Virus record (IMG/VR): IMGVR_UViG_3300012165_000089
Direction: 5' to 3' (one strand)
Source of the DNA: a virus
Taxonomy: Duplodnaviria > Heunggongvirae > Uroviricota > Caudoviricetes
Length of the DNA: 25,209 nucleotides
The notes beneath the pieces were generated by a model. It saw nothing but the letters and a program-made list of their open reading frames with translations, was not told the origin of the DNA and did not search any database. The stretch's first letter is position 1; every line of letters starts with the position of its first letter. Position numbers and translations under genes: made by a program. Below are positions 354-21,839 of this stretch, in pieces.

Positions 354-1706
354 ATGTATAATATGTTATCGTTTCGATTCAAAAACAAAAGCCCCAAAAC
401 AAAAATGATAATAAAACGACTTCTCGTATTTTTATTAACATTATTTTTGTGCGTTCCTGGATTTACATCCTTTGCAGCAACAGAAGATTCGTACCAAGCT
501 GAAATTGATGAGTACCAAGCATACTTACGTGAGGTGGCAGATCAATGTACGGATGCAGATGCAAAGCAAAAATTCGAAAAACTAATTGAAATACTATTTT
601 CAGATGAAGTAAAGAGTAAGTTTACATCCAATGATGAAAATTACAAGACGATCAAAAGCGGGTATACAATTATAAAGGATACGGTCCGTGATACTTGTGG
701 CTTAAATGCTTGGGATGCGTTCTTTGGATCAGATTTAAATGCATGGAATCTCACGAAGCAATGGCAAAGTAAATTTCGAACTGATGCCGAACAATTAGGT
801 ATTGAGTATGGCAATGTATTCAACAATAGAGGTGACGATCAGGATGAGGTACAAAACGCATCAGTAAAGGTAAATATCTTAACTTGGAATCGCGATCAAA
901 ACACAAGCGGTGCAAGTATTAATAATAATGAACGAGGCGTTATTTCTAATTTCCTAAGGTCGTTTGATGGATTTTCTGTTTTTACCGGTATAGTGTCAAG
1001 TATCGCCGTTGCGCTAACGATAGCATTTGGATGTTCGAATTTATTAATGATGACATCTGATCGAAATTTAAGCGATGAAGCATTAATACGGGAATTTGGA
1101 AAAATGCTATTTGGCATATGGTTCATCTTTAATTACAAATTCTTTGCACTGCTAGTCATCAGGCTCGGCACCATTGTTACTGAAAAAGTATTGATTGCTG
1201 ATTTTACTTCAAATCGTGGATTGATTGTTTATAAATGTTTATGCCAATCAATCGTGGAGTTAGTAGAAGAAAAAGGGAATATTTTCAATTTAACAACTTT
1301 TACAACAACCGGTTCGGCAGGAGCTGGCGAAGGTATTGGTAATGTTATATCTAATGGCTTGAGCATCGTGACAAGCTTCGTAGGGGGCGGTATTACGCAA
1401 TTAGCTTCATCATTGGTGATTTACTCTATTGTAGTTGAGATAGGAGTTAGGTACCTATTTACACCATTAGCCATTGCCGATCTATATAGTGAAAAATTCA
1501 GGAGCAATGGGTGGATGTGGATTAAAAAGTTATTCGCCTGCGCATTGCAAGGCGCTGTCGTTTACGCAATTATTTTTGCGACACATGCATTAAAGAATTC
1601 ATTCATATCTACGGATATCACCACGGTAACGGCAATCAATCTAACCATGATTGGTATGTTCGCAAAATCAAGACAAATCGCCAATGACATCATTGGTGTT
1701 CATTAG
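354..1706 (+). CDS. VirB6/TrbL-like polytopic conjugation membrane protein
   Basis: RBS AAGGAGGG. N-terminal TM/signal, then a soluble domain, then several TM segments including IGVRYLFTPLAIA...NGWMWIKKLFACALQG, typical of Gram-positive VirB6-like proteins. Context between pilin and PrgI. Confidence 0.65.
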   Translation: MYNMLSFRFKNKSPKTKMIIKRLLVFLLTLFLCVPGFTSFAATEDSYQAEIDEYQAYLREVADQCTDADAKQKFEKLIEILFSDEVKSKFTSNDENYKTIKSGYTIIKDTVRDTCGLNAWDAFFGSDLNAWNLTKQWQSKFRTDAEQLGIEYGNVFNNRGDDQDEVQNASVKVNILTWNRDQNTSGASINNNERGVISNFLRSFDGFSVFTGIVSSIAVALTIAFGCSNLLMMTSDRNLSDEALIREFGKMLFGIWFIFNYKFFALLVIRLGTIVTEKVLIADFTSNRGLIVYKCLCQSIVELVEEKGNIFNLTTFTTTGSAGAGEGIGNVISNGLSIVTSFVGGGITQLASSLVIYSIVVEIGVRYLFTPLAIADLYSEKFRSNGWMWIKKLFACALQGAVVYAIIFATHALKNSFISTDITTVTAINLTMIGMFAKSRQIANDIIGVH

Positions 1707-1718
1707 GAGGGAAAAACT

Positions 1719-2180
1719 ATGATCATCATGCCTGTACCAAAAGATATCCGTGCTGTGAAGACAAAATTCATCGGTCCACTTACCAAGCGTCAAACGTATG
1801 CCGTCGTATCTGCCGGTATCATTGCCGCAGTAGGTTTTTTTACATTCAGTTCGCTTGTATCGATGGAATCCTTGATTGCAATCATTTCGATTATCGACAC
1901 TCCAATTCTCCTATGCGGGTTCATTGATGTATATGGTATGCCATTTTGGGTGTACGCAAAGGATGTCATAATAAGAAAAATTCTATGTCCTAAACATCGT
2001 CCGTATTGTACCGAAAACACTTATCAGGATTATGCAAAACAAAGTAAAATTACATACGAATATTTAGATGGTGATGTCGAGGAATATACCTTAAAAGAGA
2101 TGAAGCGGAAATCAAAACAAAACAAAAAAAGATTGGAAAAATTCTTACGGGATAATCCGCACTTTAAGCCAATGCCGTAA
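1719..2180 (+). CDS. PrgI-family (VirB3-like) conjugation protein
   Basis: N-terminus VPKDIRAVKTKFIGPLTKRQ, two TM helices and G..GMPFW match the PrgI pattern; upstream of VirB4. Confidence 0.8.
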   Translation: MIIMPVPKDIRAVKTKFIGPLTKRQTYAVVSAGIIAAVGFFTFSSLVSMESLIAIISIIDTPILLCGFIDVYGMPFWVYAKDVIIRKILCPKHRPYCTENTYQDYAKQSKITYEYLDGDVEEYTLKEMKRKSKQNKKRLEKFLRDNPHFKPMP

Positions 2181-2244
2181 TAACTGCCAGTTCATCTCAC
2201 TATCTATAGAGATGGACACTCTTGAATCTGATTTTAATAAATTG

Positions 2245-2270
2245 AGCGGAGCGTAGTTGCTCCGCTTTTT
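2245..2270 (+). terminator. Rho-independent terminator after prgI
   Basis: AGCGGAGC-gtagtt-GCTCCGCT followed by a T run. Confidence 0.8.
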
Positions 2271-2282
2271 AGTTAAAAAAAT

Positions 2283-2292
2283 AATATCCGCA
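2283..2292 (+). promoter_or_regulatory. AATATCCGCA motif, copy 1 (upstream of virB4)
   Basis: Exact 10-mer with an A-rich 5' flank, also at 8454, 16642 and 21906; always just after a terminator and before a new operon. Confidence 0.6.
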
Positions 2293-2421
2293 AACTTATA
2301 ACCAAACAAAACATCTTACTTTCTAACATCTTTAGTAAAAGCAGTGCTTGCTCTCGAAATCGTAAGATTTATTAAAAAAATACCATAATTACTAAGAAAA
2401 AATAGGAAAGGAGTATCATTT

Positions 2422-5013
2422 ATGTTTGGAAAAAAGAAAAATCAAGCAAGTGCTGACGTAACTGAAATTGGAAAGCACTCGTCTGCGGTTCAAAAGCATG
2501 GTGCCGATATTGAACAACAAATCCAGAACTTTTCCGGCGATATCGGTAAAATGGAGTTTGATAAAAAGAAAATCGAACAGAAAAGGTCCGGGAAGAAAAA
2601 AAAGAAGGTAGCAAAATCCAAGATCGAACAGATTAAGAGTATTAAAATCAATAAAACGGCGCAGCAATCAATTCCTTACGACATGGCGTATTTAAATGGA
2701 ATTATTGAATCGGAACGGGGGATTTTTACAAAGTGTTACCGGTTGACAGATGCAAACTTTCGGACAGCGACTCAGGAAGCACAGGATGAAATGTATTTTG
2801 CCTACGGCGATTTGCTAAATTACTTTACACCGGATGTACGTCCGCAAATTGTGATTTTCAATCGCAGTATTGATAGGGAAAAGTTTGAGAGGGAAATTTT
2901 GATTAAAGAGCAGCCTGATGGTTTCGATGACTTGAGAAAAGATATAAATAACACCCTTTTATCTAAAATCAGTGAGGGCCAGAACAATATTTCCCAAGAG
3001 AAGTATTTGACCGTCTCGGTAAGGGCGGAGAATATTGAAATAGCCGCCAGTACTTTCGGGCGTATTGATGGCGAGATCGGACCGCGTATTAAAGCGATTA
3101 ACGAATCATCAACAGAGCCGATGACGCTACAGGAACGCCTGGAGTTGCTTTATAACATCTACAATCAGGACACTGATGTACCGTTCTTCAAAAAAGCAAA
3201 TATTGATGGAAATGAAGTACGTACATTCGATATTGAGTGGATGCAGCAGCTTGGCTTAACCACCAAGGACATTATCGGTCCAAGTGGCATGGTTTTTAAT
3301 GACGATTATTTTAAGTTAGGGGATAAGTTTGGTCGTTGCTTATTCTTAAAGAATCTTCCAACGCAATTGTCGGCAGAGGTTTTAACGGATATTGCAAACA
3401 TACCATGCAATGCTTTAACCAGCGTTCATTTCTCGCCAATGCGCCAAGATGAGGCGATTAAACTTGTGCGTAATCAAATGCTTGAAATTAACCGAAACAT
3501 GGCAGAAGCGGCAAAGCGTGCAGCGAAGAGCGGCCTGGGCGAGAGCATGATTTCGATTGACTTAACACAGTCAAAAAAAGATGCCGACAAGGCATACGAT
3601 GACATTACGGTACGCGATCAAAAATCAATCCTAATGACGATTACTGTAACGGTATTTGCGGATGATATGGATGATCTCGATAAATACTCGAAGATGGTAC
3701 AGAATAATGCCGAGAAACATTTGTGTACCTTGGCGAAGTTGAATTCTCAGCAAGAGAAGGGGTTTAACTCTTGCTTACCCCTTGGGAATAATAAGATTTG
3801 GGTAAACAGACTAATGAATACGGAGTCTGCCGCTCTTTTTATCCCGTTTGAGTCTCAGGAGCTAGTGCAGGAAGGTGGGCATTACTACGGCATCAATGCT
3901 ACTAGCCGCAATCTAATCATGATCAATAGATTGAAGGGCCAAAACTCAAACGGGTTGATATTCGGTATGCCAGGATCTGGTAAGTCTATGTCAGCGAAAT
4001 ATACAATGTCTCAGGCCTTTTTATCTGACCCGAACAATGAAATTTTCGTTATAGATCCGCAAGCTGAGTACCGGCCCTTATGTGAAGCGTTACACGGTCA
4101 AGTTATCCGTATTTCACCTGGTTCAGACACACATATTAATCCGTTTGATATGGATATTACAAAGGACACCAAGGGCGGTGATGATCCAGTGACTGTTAAA
4201 TCGGATTACATTTGTTCGATCTGCGAAAGTGCCATTGGTGGTCATATGGGACTAAACCCAGTTCAAGTTACAATTATTGACCGTTGTGTGCGAATGCTTT
4301 ATGGTCCATACCTGGAACATATGGAGCAACTACGCCTTCGGGGAAGTGAAATCACATGCGATACAAGTGCTTGTCCAACGTTTAAGGATTTTTATAACGT
4401 ACTCGCAAGACAGCCGGAACCAGACGCTGAATATATCCGGTTGGCTATTGAGAAGTACTGTGTTGGTTCCTACAATACCTTTTCTCACCGTACCAATGTT
4501 GATACAAATAATCGCTTCGTTGTATATGATATTCAAGATATTGGTACCGGTATGTCCGAAATCGGTATGCAGGTATGTCTGAATGATATACAGAATCGTA
4601 CGATAGCTAACCGAAAGAGAGATGTTAGAACTTGGATTTTTATCGATGAATTGTACATATTGACACAATCCGAGTTATGTGCAAAAGTCTTAATGTACAT
4701 GTGGAAGCAGTTGCGTAAATTTGGCGGTGTCTTAACTGGAATCACGCACAATGTAGAAGACCTTTTAACCAACAGAGAGTCCCGTGGTATTATCGACACC
4801 ACTCCGTTTATCTTGATGCTGAATCAGTCAAGTGAGAATAGGAATGCGATTGGAGCAATGTTGCATATTTCAGAAGCACAGTTGAACTATATTAAAAATG
4901 CAGATTCCGGTCAGGGACTGATTTATTATGGAAAATCAATTGTTCCTTTCGTTAATAAACTATCAAAGGAATCGCTTATGTATAAAATAACATCTACAAA
5001 CCCTAACGAATAA
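2422..5013 (+). CDS. virB4: VirB4-like conjugative transfer ATPase (TrsE/ConE type)
   Basis: Walker A GMPGSGKS, VIDPQAEY, Walker B WIFIDE, RKFGG, and FILMLNQS...R motifs; 863 aa; RBS GAAAGGAG. Confidence 0.92.
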   Translation: MFGKKKNQASADVTEIGKHSSAVQKHGADIEQQIQNFSGDIGKMEFDKKKIEQKRSGKKKKKVAKSKIEQIKSIKINKTAQQSIPYDMAYLNGIIESERGIFTKCYRLTDANFRTATQEAQDEMYFAYGDLLNYFTPDVRPQIVIFNRSIDREKFEREILIKEQPDGFDDLRKDINNTLLSKISEGQNNISQEKYLTVSVRAENIEIAASTFGRIDGEIGPRIKAINESSTEPMTLQERLELLYNIYNQDTDVPFFKKANIDGNEVRTFDIEWMQQLGLTTKDIIGPSGMVFNDDYFKLGDKFGRCLFLKNLPTQLSAEVLTDIANIPCNALTSVHFSPMRQDEAIKLVRNQMLEINRNMAEAAKRAAKSGLGESMISIDLTQSKKDADKAYDDITVRDQKSILMTITVTVFADDMDDLDKYSKMVQNNAEKHLCTLAKLNSQQEKGFNSCLPLGNNKIWVNRLMNTESAALFIPFESQELVQEGGHYYGINATSRNLIMINRLKGQNSNGLIFGMPGSGKSMSAKYTMSQAFLSDPNNEIFVIDPQAEYRPLCEALHGQVIRISPGSDTHINPFDMDITKDTKGGDDPVTVKSDYICSICESAIGGHMGLNPVQVTIIDRCVRMLYGPYLEHMEQLRLRGSEITCDTSACPTFKDFYNVLARQPEPDAEYIRLAIEKYCVGSYNTFSHRTNVDTNNRFVVYDIQDIGTGMSEIGMQVCLNDIQNRTIANRKRDVRTWIFIDELYILTQSELCAKVLMYMWKQLRKFGGVLTGITHNVEDLLTNRESRGIIDTTPFILMLNQSSENRNAIGAMLHISEAQLNYIKNADSGQGLIYYGKSIVPFVNKLSKESLMYKITSTNPNE

Positions 5014-5042
5014 CTACGCATAATGTATTTTAAATATTAATA

Positions 5043-5090
5043 TAAGTCCTTTTATCAGCTGTACAAATATGATTGATAAAGGGCTTATTT
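5043..5090 (+). terminator. Imperfect inverted repeat after virB4 (terminator or operator)
   Basis: TAAGTCCTTTTATCA ... TGATAAAGGGCTTA with a 16-nt loop, followed by TTTT. Confidence 0.45.
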
Positions 5091-5210
5091 TAGTTTCCAA
5101 TTTAAAAGACACTATTCTAACAATATTATCCATTCGCAATGAATAAAAACCCTAAGTATGGAATATAATGGTGATAATGTAATAATTAAAATTCCAAAAG
5201 GAGACAAGTC

Positions 5211-5444
5211 ATGGCAAGAGGAGTAAGGAAAACGGCATTAGAGAGATTGCAGGAAGAGTTAATATCCACACGGGAAAATATCGGACAATACGAAAATCAG
5301 CTGCAGACGCTCAAGGAGAAGGAAATAGAATTGGTAAGTCAAGTTGAAATAGAAGAGCTTCGATTATTGTCCGGCGTTATGAAGGAACAAAACGTATCCA
5401 TTAGTGAATTAAAAGAGATGATTATGCAGCGTCAAAGTGACTAG
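5211..5444 (+). CDS. Small coiled-coil hypothetical protein
   Basis: RBS AAAGGAG; 77 aa; heptad-rich helix; followed by a terminator. Confidence 0.75.
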   Translation: MARGVRKTALERLQEELISTRENIGQYENQLQTLKEKEIELVSQVEIEELRLLSGVMKEQNVSISELKEMIMQRQSD

Positions 5445-5469
5445 CAGGGTAATGGCTCTGCTTTTTTTT
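5443..5469 (+). terminator. Rho-independent terminator
   Basis: AGCAGGGT-aatg-GCTCTGCT plus a T run. Confidence 0.75.
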
Positions 5470-5471
5470 AT

Positions 5472-5524
5472 TTGACTATTAAAGTAATAAATGCTATCAT
5501 TAAACAACGGATGAACAAATGTTC
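5472..5524 (+). promoter_or_regulatory. SigA promoter with a Firmicutes LexA (SOS) box
   Basis: -35 TTGACT 5472-5477, 17-bp spacer, extended -10 TGcTATCAT 5492-5500, GAACAAATGTTC 5513-5524 (GAAC-N4-GTTC, spacer fits RNRY). Confidence 0.8.
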
Positions 5525-5547
5525 TTGATTTGGATGGGGATTATTAT

Positions 5548-5814
5548 ATGGAAAAATTGGCGAATGTTATTGCAAACTTTAATACCGCTGGCAGAGTTCG
5601 TCCGCTATGGCTTCAATTCGATCCTCTTGAAGAGACTCTACCCATAAAAATATTAGAGGCAACCACTGGACAAGCAGAAAGTTCATCGGGTAGATACATG
5701 ACATACATCTGCAAGGTGAAAAATAAATACAATAATGATATTGAAATCAAGCTCCGCCACTATAAAAAAGAGGATAAGTGGTATGCCATTTACAATAATT
5801 CGACGGAATTTTAA
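5548..5814 (+). CDS. Hypothetical protein, probably SOS-regulated
   Basis: ATG at 5548 behind GGATGGGG is preferred to the TTG at 5530; directly downstream of the LexA box. Confidence 0.7.
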   Translation: MEKLANVIANFNTAGRVRPLWLQFDPLEETLPIKILEATTGQAESSSGRYMTYICKVKNKYNNDIEIKLRHYKKEDKWYAIYNNSTEF

Positions 5815-5849
5815 TACGAGACATCAATTCAAAATAAGGAGACAATGAA

Positions 5850-6185
5850 ATGAATACGAAAGAATATCCATCGGCCTGTTATTTACAATCAAAGTGTATT
5901 GAGATAAAAATATCCTTATATGAGAAGCCGGTTAGATTAGATTCACCAGCAGAGGCGTGCGCTTGCATTGGCAAAATCAGAGAAGTATATAAATTACCTT
6001 GTGAGATAAATTATAATAGCCTACAAGAAAATGTATCGGAGCTAAAAAGACTTATAAAGAACAAGCCGGTTCCTACAGATAAGATTGAGAAGATGTGTCA
6101 GATTCTATTTGCATTTTCAAAAGATTGCTCGATAGAAGATATACATAAGGATATAATTGAGTACGCTTATGAGAACGAAAAATAA
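5850..6185 (+). CDS. Hypothetical protein
   Basis: RBS AAGGAG; 111 aa; followed by a terminator. Confidence 0.7.
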   Translation: MNTKEYPSACYLQSKCIEIKISLYEKPVRLDSPAEACACIGKIREVYKLPCEINYNSLQENVSELKRLIKNKPVPTDKIEKMCQILFAFSKDCSIEDIHKDIIEYAYENEK

Positions 6186-6288: not shown

Positions 6289-8259
6289 ATGATGATTGAA
6301 AGAATGAAGGAATTAAGAAGGTTGTTAAAAGAAGCGTCTGAAGCTTATTACAACGAAAGCGGAGAAATTATGAGTAACAAAGAGTACGACGATTTGTATG
6401 ATGAGCTTCGTTCTTTGGAGGCTCAGCATGGAGCAGCACCGGATAGCCCAACTGTGCAAATTGGAGCACCGGTAAGAGGTGGTTTAGCGAAGGAGAAACA
6501 CGAAAAACCGGCTTTGTCGTTAGATAAAACAAAAAGCATTAAAGACCTGGAGGACTGGTTAGGGAATGAAAAGAGCGGCGTTCTATCATGGAAGCTGGAC
6601 GGCTTAACCATTGTAGCTACATACAATCACGGACATCTGGAAAAAGTAGTAACGCGTGGAGATGGCATTATCGGAGAAAATATTACGAAGAATGCATTAA
6701 ACTTTCAGGGGCTGCCAGAAACGATTCCGATGCTCCCGTTTGATGGCAAATTAGTGATTCGAGCTGAAGCAGTAATGTCATATGAGGAATTCGAAAGAAT
6801 CAATGATACATTGCCAGTTGATGCAGAACCGTATAAAAACCCTCGCAATCTTGCTGCCGGCACCGTGCGGATGCTGAATGGTATTGGCGACCGGATCGTT
6901 GAAACTTATGCTTTTGAAATGGTAGACATGGAAAATGGGAAACCGGCCTCTGTAGTGGATCAGTTTGCTCAACTGGCCAAATACGGAATTCAGGTCGTGG
7001 ATTATCGAGTGGTAAAAAAAGCCACACTGAAATCTGCAATTGAAGATCTGGAACGTGCCATTCCTGAGAATGCCTTTCCAAGCGATGGCTTGGTATTGAC
7101 ATATGAAGATTCTGTCTATGCCGAAAACCTTGGCGTTACCGGCAAGTACCCGCGCGGATCCATTGCCTTTAAATGGCAAGACGAAGAGTTTAAAACTATT
7201 TTGCGAGAAATTGAGTGGTCCTCGTCCGCAACCGGTCTATTAAATCCAGTAGCGGTATTTGATCCGGTTGAAATTGAGGGAACGACCGTATCGAGGGCAT
7301 CTGTACATAATGTGTCATACGCAGAGAATCTGAAATTGGGATACGGCGATACTATTGAAGTGTACAAGGCAAACAAAATCATTCCCCAGCTGTCGGCGAA
7401 CTTAACTCAAAGCAATACTATGAATGTTCCTGCGGTCTGCCCGGCATGTGGTGGTGAAACAACGATTCATAGTCGGATTACCAAGGAAAGAGAAGTTCGA
7501 ACCTTGGTTTGCGTGAATCCTGAATGCGTAGCAAAACACATGGGGCGGTTCCAGCGGTTTGTCTGCCGTGATGCCATGAATATTGTTGGAATCTCAGGCA
7601 AAACACTAAAAAGATTTGTCGATAAGGGGTTCCTGCGTTCCTTGATGGATATTTACCGCTTAGAAGAACATCGAGAAGAAATCGAAAGCATGGAAGGTTT
7701 CGGTGAAAAGTCTGCGGATAACATTTTTGCTGCAATCGAAGAATCAAGAACGGTAGAACCATGGAGATTCCTGTATGCGATGAATATTCCAAATGTTGGC
7801 CGGGATGCATCAAAAAAGATTATTCGTTTCAGTGGTGGTACGTTTGAAGGATTCCTTGAAAAGCTTCGTATGGGAGAATCTTTCCAGGGGGCAGCAGACG
7901 TAGGCAACGTTACCGATCAGTCAATTTACGACTGGAAACAGAAGCGTGGATACGTAGATGACATGGCTGATTTGTTGGATCTCATGTCATTTGTAGCAAA
8001 CGAAGATAACTCATCCACGGTACTGGAGGGAAAGAATATTGTAATTACCGGTTCCTTGGAAGCGTTTAAAAACAGAGAGGCCTTTATTGCGTTTGTAGAG
8101 TCTAATGGCGGAAAAGTGGTTGGTTCCGTATCAAAAAAGACAACCTATCTGGTAAATAATGATGCATTTAGTTCATCGTCCAAAAATGTAAAAGCCAGAG
8201 CATTGGGAATTCCGATTTTGAACGAATTAGAATTCAAAAATATGGTTTTAGGCGAATAA
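6289..8259 (+). CDS. ligA: NAD-dependent DNA ligase
   Basis: LSLDK, adenylation motif KLDG, TRGDG, NPRNLAAG, PRGSIAFK, OB-fold GTTVSRASVHN, Zn finger CPACG...CVNPEC, HhH region, C-terminal BRCT (GKVVGSVSKKTTYLV). Start moved to the ATG after GGAG at 6289. Confidence 0.95.
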   Translation: MMIERMKELRRLLKEASEAYYNESGEIMSNKEYDDLYDELRSLEAQHGAAPDSPTVQIGAPVRGGLAKEKHEKPALSLDKTKSIKDLEDWLGNEKSGVLSWKLDGLTIVATYNHGHLEKVVTRGDGIIGENITKNALNFQGLPETIPMLPFDGKLVIRAEAVMSYEEFERINDTLPVDAEPYKNPRNLAAGTVRMLNGIGDRIVETYAFEMVDMENGKPASVVDQFAQLAKYGIQVVDYRVVKKATLKSAIEDLERAIPENAFPSDGLVLTYEDSVYAENLGVTGKYPRGSIAFKWQDEEFKTILREIEWSSSATGLLNPVAVFDPVEIEGTTVSRASVHNVSYAENLKLGYGDTIEVYKANKIIPQLSANLTQSNTMNVPAVCPACGGETTIHSRITKEREVRTLVCVNPECVAKHMGRFQRFVCRDAMNIVGISGKTLKRFVDKGFLRSLMDIYRLEEHREEIESMEGFGEKSADNIFAAIEESRTVEPWRFLYAMNIPNVGRDASKKIIRFSGGTFEGFLEKLRMGESFQGAADVGNVTDQSIYDWKQKRGYVDDMADLLDLMSFVANEDNSSTVLEGKNIVITGSLEAFKNREAFIAFVESNGGKVVGSVSKKTTYLVNNDAFSSSSKNVKARALGIPILNELEFKNMVLGE

Positions 8260-8297
8260 TACTATTGAAATATAATTTTCTTTGTGAGAAATCATTT

Positions 8298-8325
8298 AAA
8301 AAGAGACCTAATAAGTCTCTTTTTT
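8298..8325 (+). terminator. Rho-independent terminator after ligA
   Basis: AAAAAGAGAC-ctaataa-GTCTCTTTTT; possibly bidirectional. Confidence 0.8.
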
Positions 8326-8453
8326 AGTTCAGACCATCTTGTGTTATCTGATCATGGACAGTCGGTTTTCCATCGTTTTCGATTCTTATGCTCATTGATT
8401 AATTCTTATCAGTAGTTATTTGAAATAAAGTTCTTTTAAAAAGATAAAAATTC

Positions 8454-8504
8454 AATATCCGCAGTGATTTAAAAATTGTTGCCTGTTTACAAACTCGATA
8501 TAAT
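8454..8504 (+). promoter_or_regulatory. AATATCCGCA copy 2 plus SigA promoter at the head of the small-gene array
   Basis: Motif 8454-8463, -35 TTGTTG 8476-8481, 17-bp spacer, -10 TATAAT 8499-8504. Confidence 0.65.
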
Positions 8505-8538
8505 GGTTGTATTAAACTTAAGAAACGGAGGAGTGGCT

Positions 8539-9063
8539 TTGAGAACGGAACGATATTACCAAGAAAAGGCTCAAAATATATTTATTAAAATTATGCTCAG
8601 AGCATTGATGCGTAGAGTACATGAGCTCTCTAAATGAATATGGGATGCGCAACAAGTACAGAGGTTGCCGAGATTATATGAAAGGTGGTGTGCTTTGAAG
8701 AAGCCAACGGCAAGAAAAGAACGCTTAGAATTTATTGAGAAGAAAAAAGGAAAGCGAGGGATGGATTTTTTCCTTTATATGACGGATAGGGAAGTTAAGA
8801 ATTATTTTGATTTATTATATCCGTCTATTAAGGACAAACCGGATGCGACAGCTGCGGATGATACCGTTCAATGTTTACGATGTGGATATGATGTAGAACA
8901 TCATCTCGAATGTGCTTGCGGTGTAGATAGATGTGTTTTCACTGAAGAAGAGTGGAAAGATGATATTGAAGATGGTAGTTTTTCGGAAATGAAAAGACTG
9001 GACAAAGATTTTATTAAAAATGGTTTTCATGTACCAGATTGTGTTAAAGAGCGGAACAATTGA
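8539..9063 (+). pseudogene. Hypothetical Cys-containing protein with an in-frame TGA at codon 33
   Basis: RBS GGAGGAG 8527-8533 precedes TTG 8539. The frame runs MRTERYYQ...HELSK-TGA(8635-8637)-IWDAQQVQR into the 8665..9063 ORF, whose TTG has no RBS. Confidence 0.5.
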
Positions 9064-15463: not shown

Positions 15464-15790
15464 ATGAATAAAATTATTTTAATGGGGCGCTTAACCAGAG
15501 ATCCGGAATTGCGATATTCTCAGGGCGAACGTGCAATGGCTATTGCAAGATATACACTTGCTGTGGATCGTAGAGGTCGTCAAAATGCGGATACAACAGT
15601 TGATTACATTAATATCGTTGCGTTTGATAAGGTTGGCGAGTTTGCCGAAAAACACTTCCGGCAAGGACTGCGAGTTTTAGTATCTGGACGCCTTCAGATT
15701 GGTAGTTATACCAATAAAGAGGGACAAAAGGTAACTACTGCGGAAGTCGTGGTTGATGATCAGGAATTTGCAGATAGCAAACAGACTTAA
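15464..15790 (+). CDS. ssb: Single-stranded DNA-binding protein (OB fold only, no acidic tail)
   Basis: MNKIILMGRLTRDPELRY...DYINIVAF...KHFRQG..VLVSGRLQ; ends EFADSKQT. Confidence 0.9.
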   Translation: MNKIILMGRLTRDPELRYSQGERAMAIARYTLAVDRRGRQNADTTVDYINIVAFDKVGEFAEKHFRQGLRVLVSGRLQIGSYTNKEGQKVTTAEVVVDDQEFADSKQT

Positions 15791-19415: not shown

Positions 19416-20882
19416 ATGAATATTCAAAAGAAATATGAAATGGAAGATCTATATATCAATCTTTACGGAAGAGATCCGCTTTATGTTTACGAAAGAGAAA
19501 TTAAGGGTCTCAATAATATTTCTTACGAAAAGTATTTAAAGGAGTCGATATATTCCTTTAAACAAGCAGGTTCCGTAAATCTTGTTGTAATCGACAATGA
19601 TGATGCAACAGAAGAGACTGAATTAAAACTTCCAGTAATCATAAATGACGGGAGTAAAGCTTCGATGGGTCTAAAAGATAACGTTGCAGACCGTATTGGA
19701 CGACGCATCAATAAGAGTGCTAAGCTGCTATATGAAAAAATAAGAAAAGAGTCTGTTGAAGAATGGAAAAATGATATCAATGCGTTCTATTGTTGGTTTG
19801 ATGCGGAATTATTAAAGTCAACCGGAACTGTTTTTATTCGAATCAACCTTAATAAGCCTTATGGCCCGCAAAACTGCATGCTGACAGATAGTATTAAAAT
19901 CTTAACAGAACCATTAAATGAGAAATTCCATACAAATTTGGATACGCTCTATCGAAAAATGGTTATAACTCATTCAAGAAAGGAATTAGCGCCAGAGTGG
20001 GGATCCACTCATAGCTTCATTCATTGGATTCAAAATCACCAAGAACAAATTCCGGAGCGACCAGTTTTGATTAGAATCAACCGAAATAAGCCTTTCGGCC
20101 CCGATAACTGTAAGTTTAAAAGAGTAGAAGACGTAAGAAGAAATCGTAAAAACTACACGGATGAGGAACAACAGTTAATCGATACTGTAATTGAAATCGG
20201 AAATAGTTATGGAACGGATCCGGTCGCTAAATATGAAAACATTTGCAATTGCGGCGATGTGGATTCAAAAAAATGGACTCTAAAGAAATATCTTAAATGG
20301 GTTATCAAGCAGAATGAAAATAATCATTTTGCGCCTTGCTTAAATCGTCTGAACATCAATAAACCTTATTCCCCAAACAACTGCTATTTCAGTTGGCGAT
20401 CAAGAGGTAAAAGGACACATGGTATGTCTAATACTAAACTGTATCGTAAATATCTCTATTTTACGCGGTATTATCGGGAACATCTGGAAACTAAAATTAC
20501 ATTTGAAGAATTCATGGAAATTGCCTTGAAAGAAAAGGATTATCAGCTAAATTCTCGTATGAAAATAAATTACCAAGATCCCATCACCATGGATAGTGTT
20601 GATTTTATTCAAGATGATAGTGATATAAGTGATATTAATCGCATTTGTGATATTTACCGCACAGAAATAAGAGCCGGTAAAGATGGCTTTGATGGCTTGA
20701 TGAAATTTATGGAATGGACCATTCGACAAGGATATACATCATGGATGGATTTTCAAAAAATTGGCAAAGGCGATTATTCACCAGAAACTTGTGTTTGGGA
20801 TATCTTCACAGCCGATGCTTACATCCGCTCCAAAGGAAGACGCATTACAACAACATTTGAAAATAAAGTCAATGACTCATGA
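19416..20882 (+). CDS. Protein with five tandem degenerate HNH-like (homing-endonuclease-type) repeats; last 4 codons and stop come from the inserted element
   Basis: Repeats RINLNKPYGPQNC, RINRNKPFGPDNC, RLNINKPYSPNNC, KINYQDPITMDSV and KIGKGDYSPETC, four of them preceded by a W/F..F..W-like segment; also THGMSNTKLY. Confidence 0.7.
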   Translation: MNIQKKYEMEDLYINLYGRDPLYVYEREIKGLNNISYEKYLKESIYSFKQAGSVNLVVIDNDDATEETELKLPVIINDGSKASMGLKDNVADRIGRRINKSAKLLYEKIRKESVEEWKNDINAFYCWFDAELLKSTGTVFIRINLNKPYGPQNCMLTDSIKILTEPLNEKFHTNLDTLYRKMVITHSRKELAPEWGSTHSFIHWIQNHQEQIPERPVLIRINRNKPFGPDNCKFKRVEDVRRNRKNYTDEEQQLIDTVIEIGNSYGTDPVAKYENICNCGDVDSKKWTLKKYLKWVIKQNENNHFAPCLNRLNINKPYSPNNCYFSWRSRGKRTHGMSNTKLYRKYLYFTRYYREHLETKITFEEFMEIALKEKDYQLNSRMKINYQDPITMDSVDFIQDDSDISDINRICDIYRTEIRAGKDGFDGLMKFMEWTIRQGYTSWMDFQKIGKGDYSPETCVWDIFTADAYIRSKGRRITTTFENKVNDS

Positions 20883-21101
20883 CTAAAGTCACGAGCTCGT
20901 AAAAGCTCGACATTGATTAGCCTAAGCCTTATCTGACTACGTTATTTTGGTCGATGCACCATAGGGTACTTCTCAAGCTCTATGGCAACTGTCGTTTGTG
21001 GTTAAAAGTCCTGTGGAGTAGGGACGGTGCTGCAAACATGACAAGCCTTTCCAACTTTGGCGATGAGGAAGTAACTACAACTTGATTGTAGGGCTTATAG
21101 C
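20868..21101 (+). ncRNA. Omega RNA (HEARO-like) scaffold; the guide would be the 5' flank
   Basis: Recognisable blocks GTCAAT...ATTGAT-TAGCCTAAG, GACTACGTT, stem CCATAGGG/CTCTATGG, long-range pair TACTTCTCA (20967-20975) with TGAGGAAGTA (21064-21073), TTGGCGA and GGCTTATAGC. The 3' end is approximate. Confidence 0.8.
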
Positions 21102-21206
21102 CACCGTGCTGGGACGGTATATCTCCAGCAACCCATTAAAACGAAAAGGAGTGCGGCTCTCATCTCATGACTTAAGTCACGAGTCTCCGAGCCTGTGTGG
21201 TTGTCA
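20868..21206. mobile_element. Non-autonomous IS200/IS605-superfamily (IscB-type) miniature element, no tnpA or iscB
   Basis: Near-identical subterminal hairpins CTCATGAC-TAAA-GTCACGAG (20876-20895) and CTCATGAC-TTAA-GTCACGAG (21164-21183); begins GTCAA; followed by ATGAA (21207-21211); no ORF inside. Confidence 0.85.
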
Positions 21207-21839
21207 ATGAAAACAAATAAAGTACATTTGAAGGGGACAGTTGTATCAAATTTTGAATTTAACCATAAAAACTATAATCAGAATTTCTATACAGCAAAAC
21301 TAGCTGTAAAGCGCTTGAGTGGGCAAGTCGATACTATCCCCATCATGATTTCAGATGAGACACTTGATATTACTAATAATTACATTGGTAAAACGCTGGG
21401 AGTCACTGGGCAATTTCGTTCTCATATCAAAAACGGCGACACAAGCACTAATTTACTTTTGTATGTCTTTGTCCAGAAGCTTCAATTTTGTGATAATACT
21501 CAGGATTATGTTGACGCTATTACAGATAATTGCGAATTAGTTGCTACTATTGCTAAAACCAACCCCTTGCGGAAAACTCCGCTCGGACGTGAGATTTGCG
21601 AGGTGTTCGCATTAGTAAACCGCGAAAGTGGAAAGCGTGATTATATTCCTTGTATCACTTGGGGTAAAACCGCAAAAATAGCGAACAATTTTGAACCCGG
21701 TACAGAAATTCGCATTTCAGGGCGGGTACAAAGTCGTGAATATTGGAAAAAAAATAGTAATGATGAGATCGAGACACGTACCGCCTACGAAGTATCTGTC
21801 AGAAGACTGGAAATATATTCCGACTTGAAACAGGCTTAA
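21207..21839 (+). CDS. ssb: Clostridial-type single-stranded DNA-binding protein with two OB folds
   Basis: VKRLSGQVDTIPIMIS, GQFRS, RKTPLGREI, VNR...DYIPCITWG, GRVQSREY and TAYEVSV motifs. No good RBS before 21207. Confidence 0.85.
   Translation: MKTNKVHLKGTVVSNFEFNHKNYNQNFYTAKLAVKRLSGQVDTIPIMISDETLDITNNYIGKTLGVTGQFRSHIKNGDTSTNLLLYVFVQKLQFCDNTQDYVDAITDNCELVATIAKTNPLRKTPLGREICEVFALVNRESGKRDYIPCITWGKTAKIANNFEPGTEIRISGRVQSREYWKKNSNDEIETRTAYEVSVRRLEIYSDLKQA

Follow-up and report, generated by a model that had tools for sequence, protein, structure and literature searches.

What kind of element is a 0.34-kb segment that encodes no protein, lies between two genes of a conjugative element and folds like the guide RNA of an OMEGA system, and could it still move or guide anything? 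The question arises at positions 20868–21202 or 20868–21206 of the window, by which we mean the whole 25,209-nt stretch of IMG/VR record IMGVR_UViG_3300012165_000089, filed under Caudoviricetes and derived from a series of fungus-associated metagenomes. An earlier note on this DNA, made from the letters alone, had read the segment as a protein-less IscB-type mini-transposon that keeps its omega RNA. We ran the covariance-model search that the note had proposed, and the Rfam model HEARO (RF02033) matched 20868–21075 on the plus strand with 106 bits, where the gathering score is 83 (a margin of 23 bits; E 3e-21). The match spans model positions 1–211 of 211 and is the sole Rfam match in the window; by score and coverage the segment is thus a HEARO RNA, as the note had claimed, and the adjoining 3′ iscB gene (RRXRR + HNH) that also characterizes HEARO is missing from the window element. 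No open reading frame (ORF) longer than 43 aa was found within 20868–21206, only chance frames, so that the segment is indeed gene-less. We conclude that it is almost certainly an ORF-less, non-autonomous deletion derivative of an IscB-type (ISC) IS200/IS605 element, that is, a PATE-like mini. Taken as a whole, the locus is very probably best explained as such a mini with an omega RNA, movable by TnpA in trans and usable by IscB in trans.

The ends of the segment have the form expected of this group. A 20-mer, CTCATGACT[A/T]AAGTCACGAG, is present twice in direct orientation, at 20876–20895 and 21164–21183, and these are the two matching terminal hairpins that had been noticed earlier. As in IS200/IS605 (ISC) elements and PATEs, the hairpins are imperfect, subterminal and on the same strand at both ends, without terminal inverted repeats; a conserved transposon-adjacent motif (TAM) of 4–5 nt abuts the left end (LE), and identical ends recur at many unrelated sites. 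On the minus strand, the top strand with respect to TnpA, the order is TTCAT, the LE tip, GAGA, the LE hairpin, a remnant of ~90 nt, the antisense omega-RNA scaffold, CGAG, the hairpin of the right end (RE) and finally TCATTGAC, the RE terminus or transposon-encoded motif (TEM). The parts are listed here by position, with type A denoting the ORF-less architecture of the window copy.

20848–20867, plus strand: putative guide flank directly 5′ of the scaffold (...CAACAACATTTGAAAATAAA), placed by its position before the HEARO start.
20868–21075, plus strand: IscB omega-RNA scaffold (HEARO, RF02033), which includes the transposon RE as read on the minus strand.
20868–20875, minus strand: RE terminus or TEM (TCATTGAC), ending in TTGAC; copy 1 of the 8-bp direct repeat GTCAATGA.
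20876–20895, minus strand: RE subterminal hairpin, a predicted TnpA binding site, doubling as the first omega-RNA hairpin.
20896–20899, minus strand: putative RE DNA guide CGAG for the TEM TGAC, at the 5′ foot of the hairpin on the TnpA top strand.
21076–21134, plus strand: type A-specific internal segment that contains three small hairpins.
21135–21163, plus strand: remnant of the final ~25 nt of the iscB coding region and the approach to the LE hairpin, from local alignment to the iscB 3′ end in loci L147 and L136.
21164–21183, minus strand: LE subterminal hairpin, a predicted TnpA binding site.
21184–21202, minus strand: LE DNA guide GAGA (21184–21187), linker and LE tip, the last bases of which differ among copies.
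21203–21206, no strand assigned: ambiguous GTCA, either extra LE tip or original host DNA; with 21207–21210 it forms copy 2 of GTCAATGA.
21207–21211, plus strand: ATGAA, the TAM or target site (TTCAT on the minus strand), whose ATG also starts the gene of the single-stranded DNA-binding (SSB) family.

The pairings TCAT/GAGA and TGAC/CGAG fit the pairing rule of IS608, of which PMC10055086 gives a summary, and are putative for this element. The guide-like flank at 20848–20867 had no other close match within the window.

The element belongs to a family that is mobile. With a 22-nt word from the scaffold we collected 19 contigs of the same JGI series, plus a chimeric ENA contig (L009). The 19 left flanks are all different and unrelated, and each stands directly before GTCAATG; the right flank started with ATGAA in every copy in which it could be read (13 of 13, from 9 fetched copies and 4 further contig ends). 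The TTCAT target and the TTGAC terminus that the note had deduced from a single copy were therefore borne out. TTCAT is also the experimentally determined TAM of GstIscB (ISGst5), where it equals the TnpA target (PMC10055086), so that the note was right to name ATGAA as an IscB TAM. At 7 of the 19 sites the scaffold runs into a ribosome-binding site (RBS) and an iscB start, and locus L147 encodes a complete IscB at 7471–8802 (NCBIfam NF040563, guided_IscB, 378 bits) with RRXRR and HNH domains. The window scaffold is 82–93% identical to the sister scaffolds, including those 7, and 89–93% identical to the scaffolds of the IscB elements in this metagenome series. Across 14 copies the stems are maintained, with 3 compensatory pairs and few broken ones.

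Minis of the same architecture are present at several sites. Type A was found again, in different flanks, at L132, L136 and L139. Three other sites (L133, L135 and L148), again with different flanks, carry ORF-less minis of another architecture, type B. These are the further mini-copies with ATGAA flanks that the note had suggested looking for. Another 5 of the 19 sites are cut off by the contig or locus end, and in L136, a contig of 11 kb, a type A mini occurs together with the 3′ end of an iscB element. Both mini types retain the scaffold to within one base of the last HEARO model position, together with the final ~25 nt of iscB and the LE hairpin; in L147 the iscB stop codon falls within this hairpin. 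Because types A and B each occur at three or more sites with distinct flanks, the minis have transposed as minis after the loss of iscB. That the retained 5′ part of either architecture stops within one base of the last omega-RNA model position, and that both have spread, would fit minis which require a guide of their own, with IscB supplied in trans, for restoration after excision by TnpA.

Some further features of the family were observed alongside. The ATG within the ATGAA flank starts an ORF of 65 to 568 aa in at least 6 of 9 copies (counted at window position 21207 and in the right flanks of L136, with two, L148, L147, L135 and L139), which indicates that the family often inserts exactly between an RBS and a start codon. 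The segment at 21076–21134 had no match among the fetched full-length iscB elements; one of its hairpins (window 21116–21129, compared with L132 and L136) shows a compensatory change from CCGT...ACGG to CCGC...GCGG, which hints at a folded structure in this extra segment of type A; it may form a 3′ extension of the omega RNA. The ENA contig L009 (1–483) takes its left flank and the first ~230 nt of the copy, with a 44-nt insertion, from another copy and is identical to the window locus thereafter, so that assemblies can break or jump within the repeat. A group II intron domain (RF00029, 49 bits) was matched at 2098–2170 of L143, ~1.6 kb from its IscB element.

The strand reading is given by elements that carry their own transposase. 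In genomes of Holdemanella and Youngiibacter, Y1 TnpA genes are closely preceded by the same 20-mer hairpin (a copy in Terrilactibacillus has one extra loop base). On the TnpA-sense strand the hairpin reads CTCGTGACTTTAGTCATGAG, which is the minus strand of the window. The hairpin pattern was found at 120 or more loci in Bacillota and other phyla, none of which resembles the window element beyond the hairpin. Six Y1 TnpA sequences compared by tblastn with the window and all metagenome loci gave no match. The IS200-like TnpA elements of Holdemanella hominis (L155, ~1990–2040) and Youngiibacter multivorans (L154 and L160) share the hairpin and have the foot GAACA instead of GGAGA, and TTTAT, not TTCAT, stands ~17 nt upstream of the foot (22 nt from the hairpin). 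This combination of foot and target looks like the covariation of TAM and DNA guide described for ISGst families.

Where exactly does the element begin and end? The left end lies at 20868, because GTCAATG directly follows each of the 19 different left flanks of the sisters. Summed contig depth is ~30 on the flanks and ~1,000–6,000 over the hairpins and scaffold, with the step exactly at 20868; it returns to the flank level after ~21202, while summed k-mer depth on the hairpins reaches up to ~200 times that of the flank. The right boundary is uncertain by 4 nt, being either 21202 (an element of 335 bp) or 21206 (339 bp), so that of the 339 bp claimed originally the left end stands and the right end becomes less definite. 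This uncertainty comes from the GTCA at 21203–21206, which lies between the usual ...GGTT and ATGAA in the window copy only and is absent from every sister. Among the copies, the 4–8 nt between the conserved ...GAGCCTRTRY and ATGAA vary (GGTT, GATT, GGTTA, GAATT, AAATT or ACGAATT), and in the window copy this tail is GGTTGTCA. Whereas the sisters have no target-site duplication, the window copy has at its two ends GTCAATGA, an 8-bp direct repeat (20868–20875 and 21203–21210), four bases of which are the TAM matching a TAM-like ATGA within the RE, the other four being the unexplained GTCA.

The family rule that ATGAA abuts the end suggests 20868–21206 as the element. Excision of this segment joins ...GAA AAT AAA to ATG AAA ACA... 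in frame and without a stop, and hence the 488-aa gene upstream would be fused to the SSB gene. Such a natural fusion is disfavoured, since all homologues of the 488-aa protein end no more than a few residues from ...FENK, Pfam finds no SSB domain in the longer homologues, and at 3 related loci the 488-aa-type and SSB genes are separate, with a spacer of 46–158 nt that contains an RBS. If GTCA is instead host DNA, the restored site reads ...AAT AAA GTC AAT GAA AAC AAA TAA and provides a stop for the upstream gene, which would overlap the SSB start by 14 nt. The pre-insertion allele was probably ...AATAAA-GTCAATGAA..., with the TAM 4 nt off the guide match. The note had proposed that the RNA would direct cutting of uninterrupted copies of the locus; with GTCA as host DNA this does not follow, because the TAM is then displaced by 4 nt from the guide match and only the canonical joint made by TnpA shows guide plus ATGAA. 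As to the origin of GTCA, the RE ends in ...GTCAT-TGAC, so that an RE–LE junction has a TAM-like site 4 nt upstream of the usual position. Meers et al. (2023) described that the spacing between TAM or TEM and DNA guide is flexible and that ends can capture extra bases (PMC10055086), and by analogy GTCA may be an LE tip captured from such a junction, which is a plausible mechanism. It may also stem from insertion at a TEM-like TTGAC or from a permuted element.

The window is part of a Gram-positive conjugative element. Its genes include those for a PrgI-family protein and a VirB4-like ATPase (TraG P-loop/AAA_10), which substantiates the conjugative context named in the note, as well as an NAD-dependent ligase, two SPFH proteins, two SSB-family proteins and a giant surface protein with SpaA domains. 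Contigs of 85–89 kb of this conjugative element recur across several samples, and its relatives show the order 488-aa gene, SSB gene and giant surface protein free of the insert. The plasmid collection held no near match to the locus and only distant HEARO-like matches, and no relatives of the 488-aa protein were found in the scan of genome contigs. The two genes that flank the insert are as follows.

19416–20882, plus strand: upstream gene of 488 aa, without a Pfam family.
21207–21839, plus strand: downstream SSB-family gene of 210 aa (PF00436, E 4.5e-17).

The last four codons and the stop of the 488-aa gene (V N D S *, 20868–20882) are supplied by the inserted element, and the omega RNA is co-oriented with both genes. 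Within the 488-aa protein a module that ends in ...N(K/L)(N/T)KP(F/Y)(G/S)P(D/Q/N)N is repeated, and a 586-aa homologue has more of these repeats; in related conjugative elements a gene of this type is conserved beside those for the SSB protein and the giant adhesin. The SSB start at 21207 has no obvious Shine-Dalgarno sequence; relatives have GGAG 5–6 nt upstream. As the window holds a second SSB-family gene (15464–15790, 108 aa, besides that at 21207–21839, 210 aa), the 108-aa protein might cover for reduced expression of the 210-aa protein behind the insert.

How, then, could such a mini work? On the reading as a mini served in trans, a Y1 TnpA encoded elsewhere would bind both hairpins on single-stranded DNA and excise the element or insert it 3′ of TTCAT. 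In characterized systems the TAM and TEM are read by short DNA guides at the foot of the hairpins, and IscB guides come from the flank outside the RE (PMC10055086). No terminator-like site was seen on the plus strand between the 488-aa gene and the element, and the scaffold has no good promoter of its own, which makes read-through from the 488-aa gene the likely source of a guide-bearing RNA; we infer a transcript of about 16–20 nt of flank followed by the scaffold. The IscB of a full-length sister element residing in the same cell would load this RNA and cut guide plus ATGAA, that is, the donor joint left by excision, and recombination at the cut joint would restore the element.

Several observations weigh against this reading or against the activity of the present copy. 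Its HEARO score of 106 bits is the lowest of the 18 family copies scored (complete sisters reach 121–138, and the other allele at the same locus 112), with most of the deficit in the long-range stem, where pairs kept by the rest of the family are disrupted by a G to A change at 20944 and by a C near ~21050. All contigs across the site, which come from at least 10 samples, carry the insert; the GTCA at the LE is peculiar to this copy, and no sigma-70-like promoter was seen directly upstream of the scaffold. The 25-kb window and the adjacent contig sequence contained neither iscB nor tnpA, so that the search for these genes suggested by the note succeeded for iscB in sister elements of the same metagenomes and failed near the locus itself. 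These points have led us to consider that the element, of the same origin, is now an inert fossil, left by one ancestral landing, fixed, decaying, immobile and without a usable guide, which comes close to an even possibility. The lowest score in the family, the unique substitutions that disrupt stem pairs, the insert in all spanning contigs and the aberrant LE tip are all as a fossil would have them. So is the distribution of differences between the two alleles of this insertion, the one in the window (and L008), which carries the pair-breaking variant, and the other in L001, L003 and L007, as they differ at two scaffold positions (20944 and 20953) and at none in ~700 bp of aligned flank. All contigs with the exact SSB or 488-aa protein carry the insert and an empty site was not found among them, the cluster members of the 488-aa protein are all 488 aa long or fragments, and the Logan contigs of four runs contained no joint across the element. 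On the other hand, the score still exceeds the cut-off by 23 bits and the match covers the entire model. The window copy also has an intact TEM and TAM and retains both putative DNA guides and both hairpins intact, and active-looking relatives are abundant in the same samples. The low score, the broken pairs and the presence in all spanning contigs fit an old, fixed and slowly decaying insertion, and since the window scaffold is the most degraded in the family, we regard it as somewhat doubtful that this copy still acts as a guide.

The exact placement between two co-directional genes raises a different possibility, namely that the conjugative element has co-opted the scaffold as a structured spacer or regulator, for example an attenuator or RNA-stability element, outside OMEGA biology. 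The insert supplies the stop of the upstream gene, parts the SSB start codon from any upstream RBS, and is fixed in all copies of the conjugative element, all of which would suit such a role. Yet the locus shows no sign of specific selection, the scaffold being degraded rather than conserved, the sisters lie in many unrelated contexts, and the relatives of the conjugative element that lack the insert have an ordinary spacer of 46–158 nt with an RBS; co-option is thus very improbable. Assemblers do break in this repeat, as the chimera of two copies in L009 demonstrates, and the locus might in principle be an assembly artefact or a chance resemblance. Independent assemblies of many samples, in JGI, ENA and Logan data, contain the same junctions, however, and against the E value of the covariance model chance resemblance has hardly any standing, so that the likelihood of either is negligible. 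A mini with an omega RNA, served in trans, therefore stays our preferred explanation of the locus.

Elements of this kind are already known. In the summary given in PMC10691335, Altae-Tran et al. (2021) described standalone mobilised omega RNAs that have neither effector nor transposase and work in trans through compatible effectors, and PATE-like ORF-less minis often encode omega RNAs (PMC10055086); the novelty that the earlier note saw in the locus was accordingly overrated. As that summary presents them, the standalone RNAs resemble the window element in having transposon ends without effector or transposase beside effector-bearing loci, and they differ in that their function in trans was shown by experiment, whereas for the window element such a function is a prediction. 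The closest characterized system is ISGst5 with GstIscB, likewise an IscB-type IS200/IS605 element with the TAM TTCAT and a HEARO-like omega RNA bounded by the RE. ISGst5 and the PATE-like elements of Geobacillus stearothermophilus also share the use of a Y1 TnpA in trans via subterminal hairpins, DNA guides and ORF-less minis; the comparison was made at the level of the general family, and the window mini comes from a fungus-associated metagenome and has a different sequence. PMC10055086 links PATEs with omega RNAs mainly to TnpB, whereas the window mini has an IscB-type scaffold and sits on a conjugative element.

The ISC transposons of Kapitonov et al. (2016), with a 5′-GTCA terminus and the target N|ATGA (PMC4810608), match the window element in the terminal GTCA and in a 3′ ATGA(A) target in the iscB orientation, and match its family in lacking target duplication and in having imperfect subterminal hairpins. 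They encode IscB and measure 1.3–1.7 kb, in contrast to the gene-less 335–339 bp here. PATEs and the REP-type derivatives of IS200/IS605 are, like the window element, short, gene-less and hairpin-ended and need a Y1 transposase in trans; the classical ones consist essentially of ends only, whereas the window element and the type B minis keep a complete guide-RNA scaffold of ~210 nt. To the known kind the locus adds an IscB-type example with a TTCAT TAM that is borne by a conjugative element. Mildly new, at the level of the family, is that two independent mini architectures have each retained the whole scaffold and proliferated, which is suggestive of minis that need a guide of their own for restoration by IscB. 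The family also contributes a set of 19 insertion sites with the invariant TAM TTCAT, intact IscB relatives and two mini types.

No new mechanism is revealed by these findings. It is unlikely, in our estimate, that the ORF-less IscB minis are hyperparasites under selection and not mere debris, and the 19-site family set can be used for asking whether the persistence of a mini depends on its own omega RNA. The locus is a natural example of how effector, guide RNA and transposase can be separated in OMEGA systems, with 0.34 kb keeping the scaffold and two handles for the transposase. If the proposed mechanism is true, a mini carried by a conjugative element would bring a ready guide to any recipient that has a compatible IscB.

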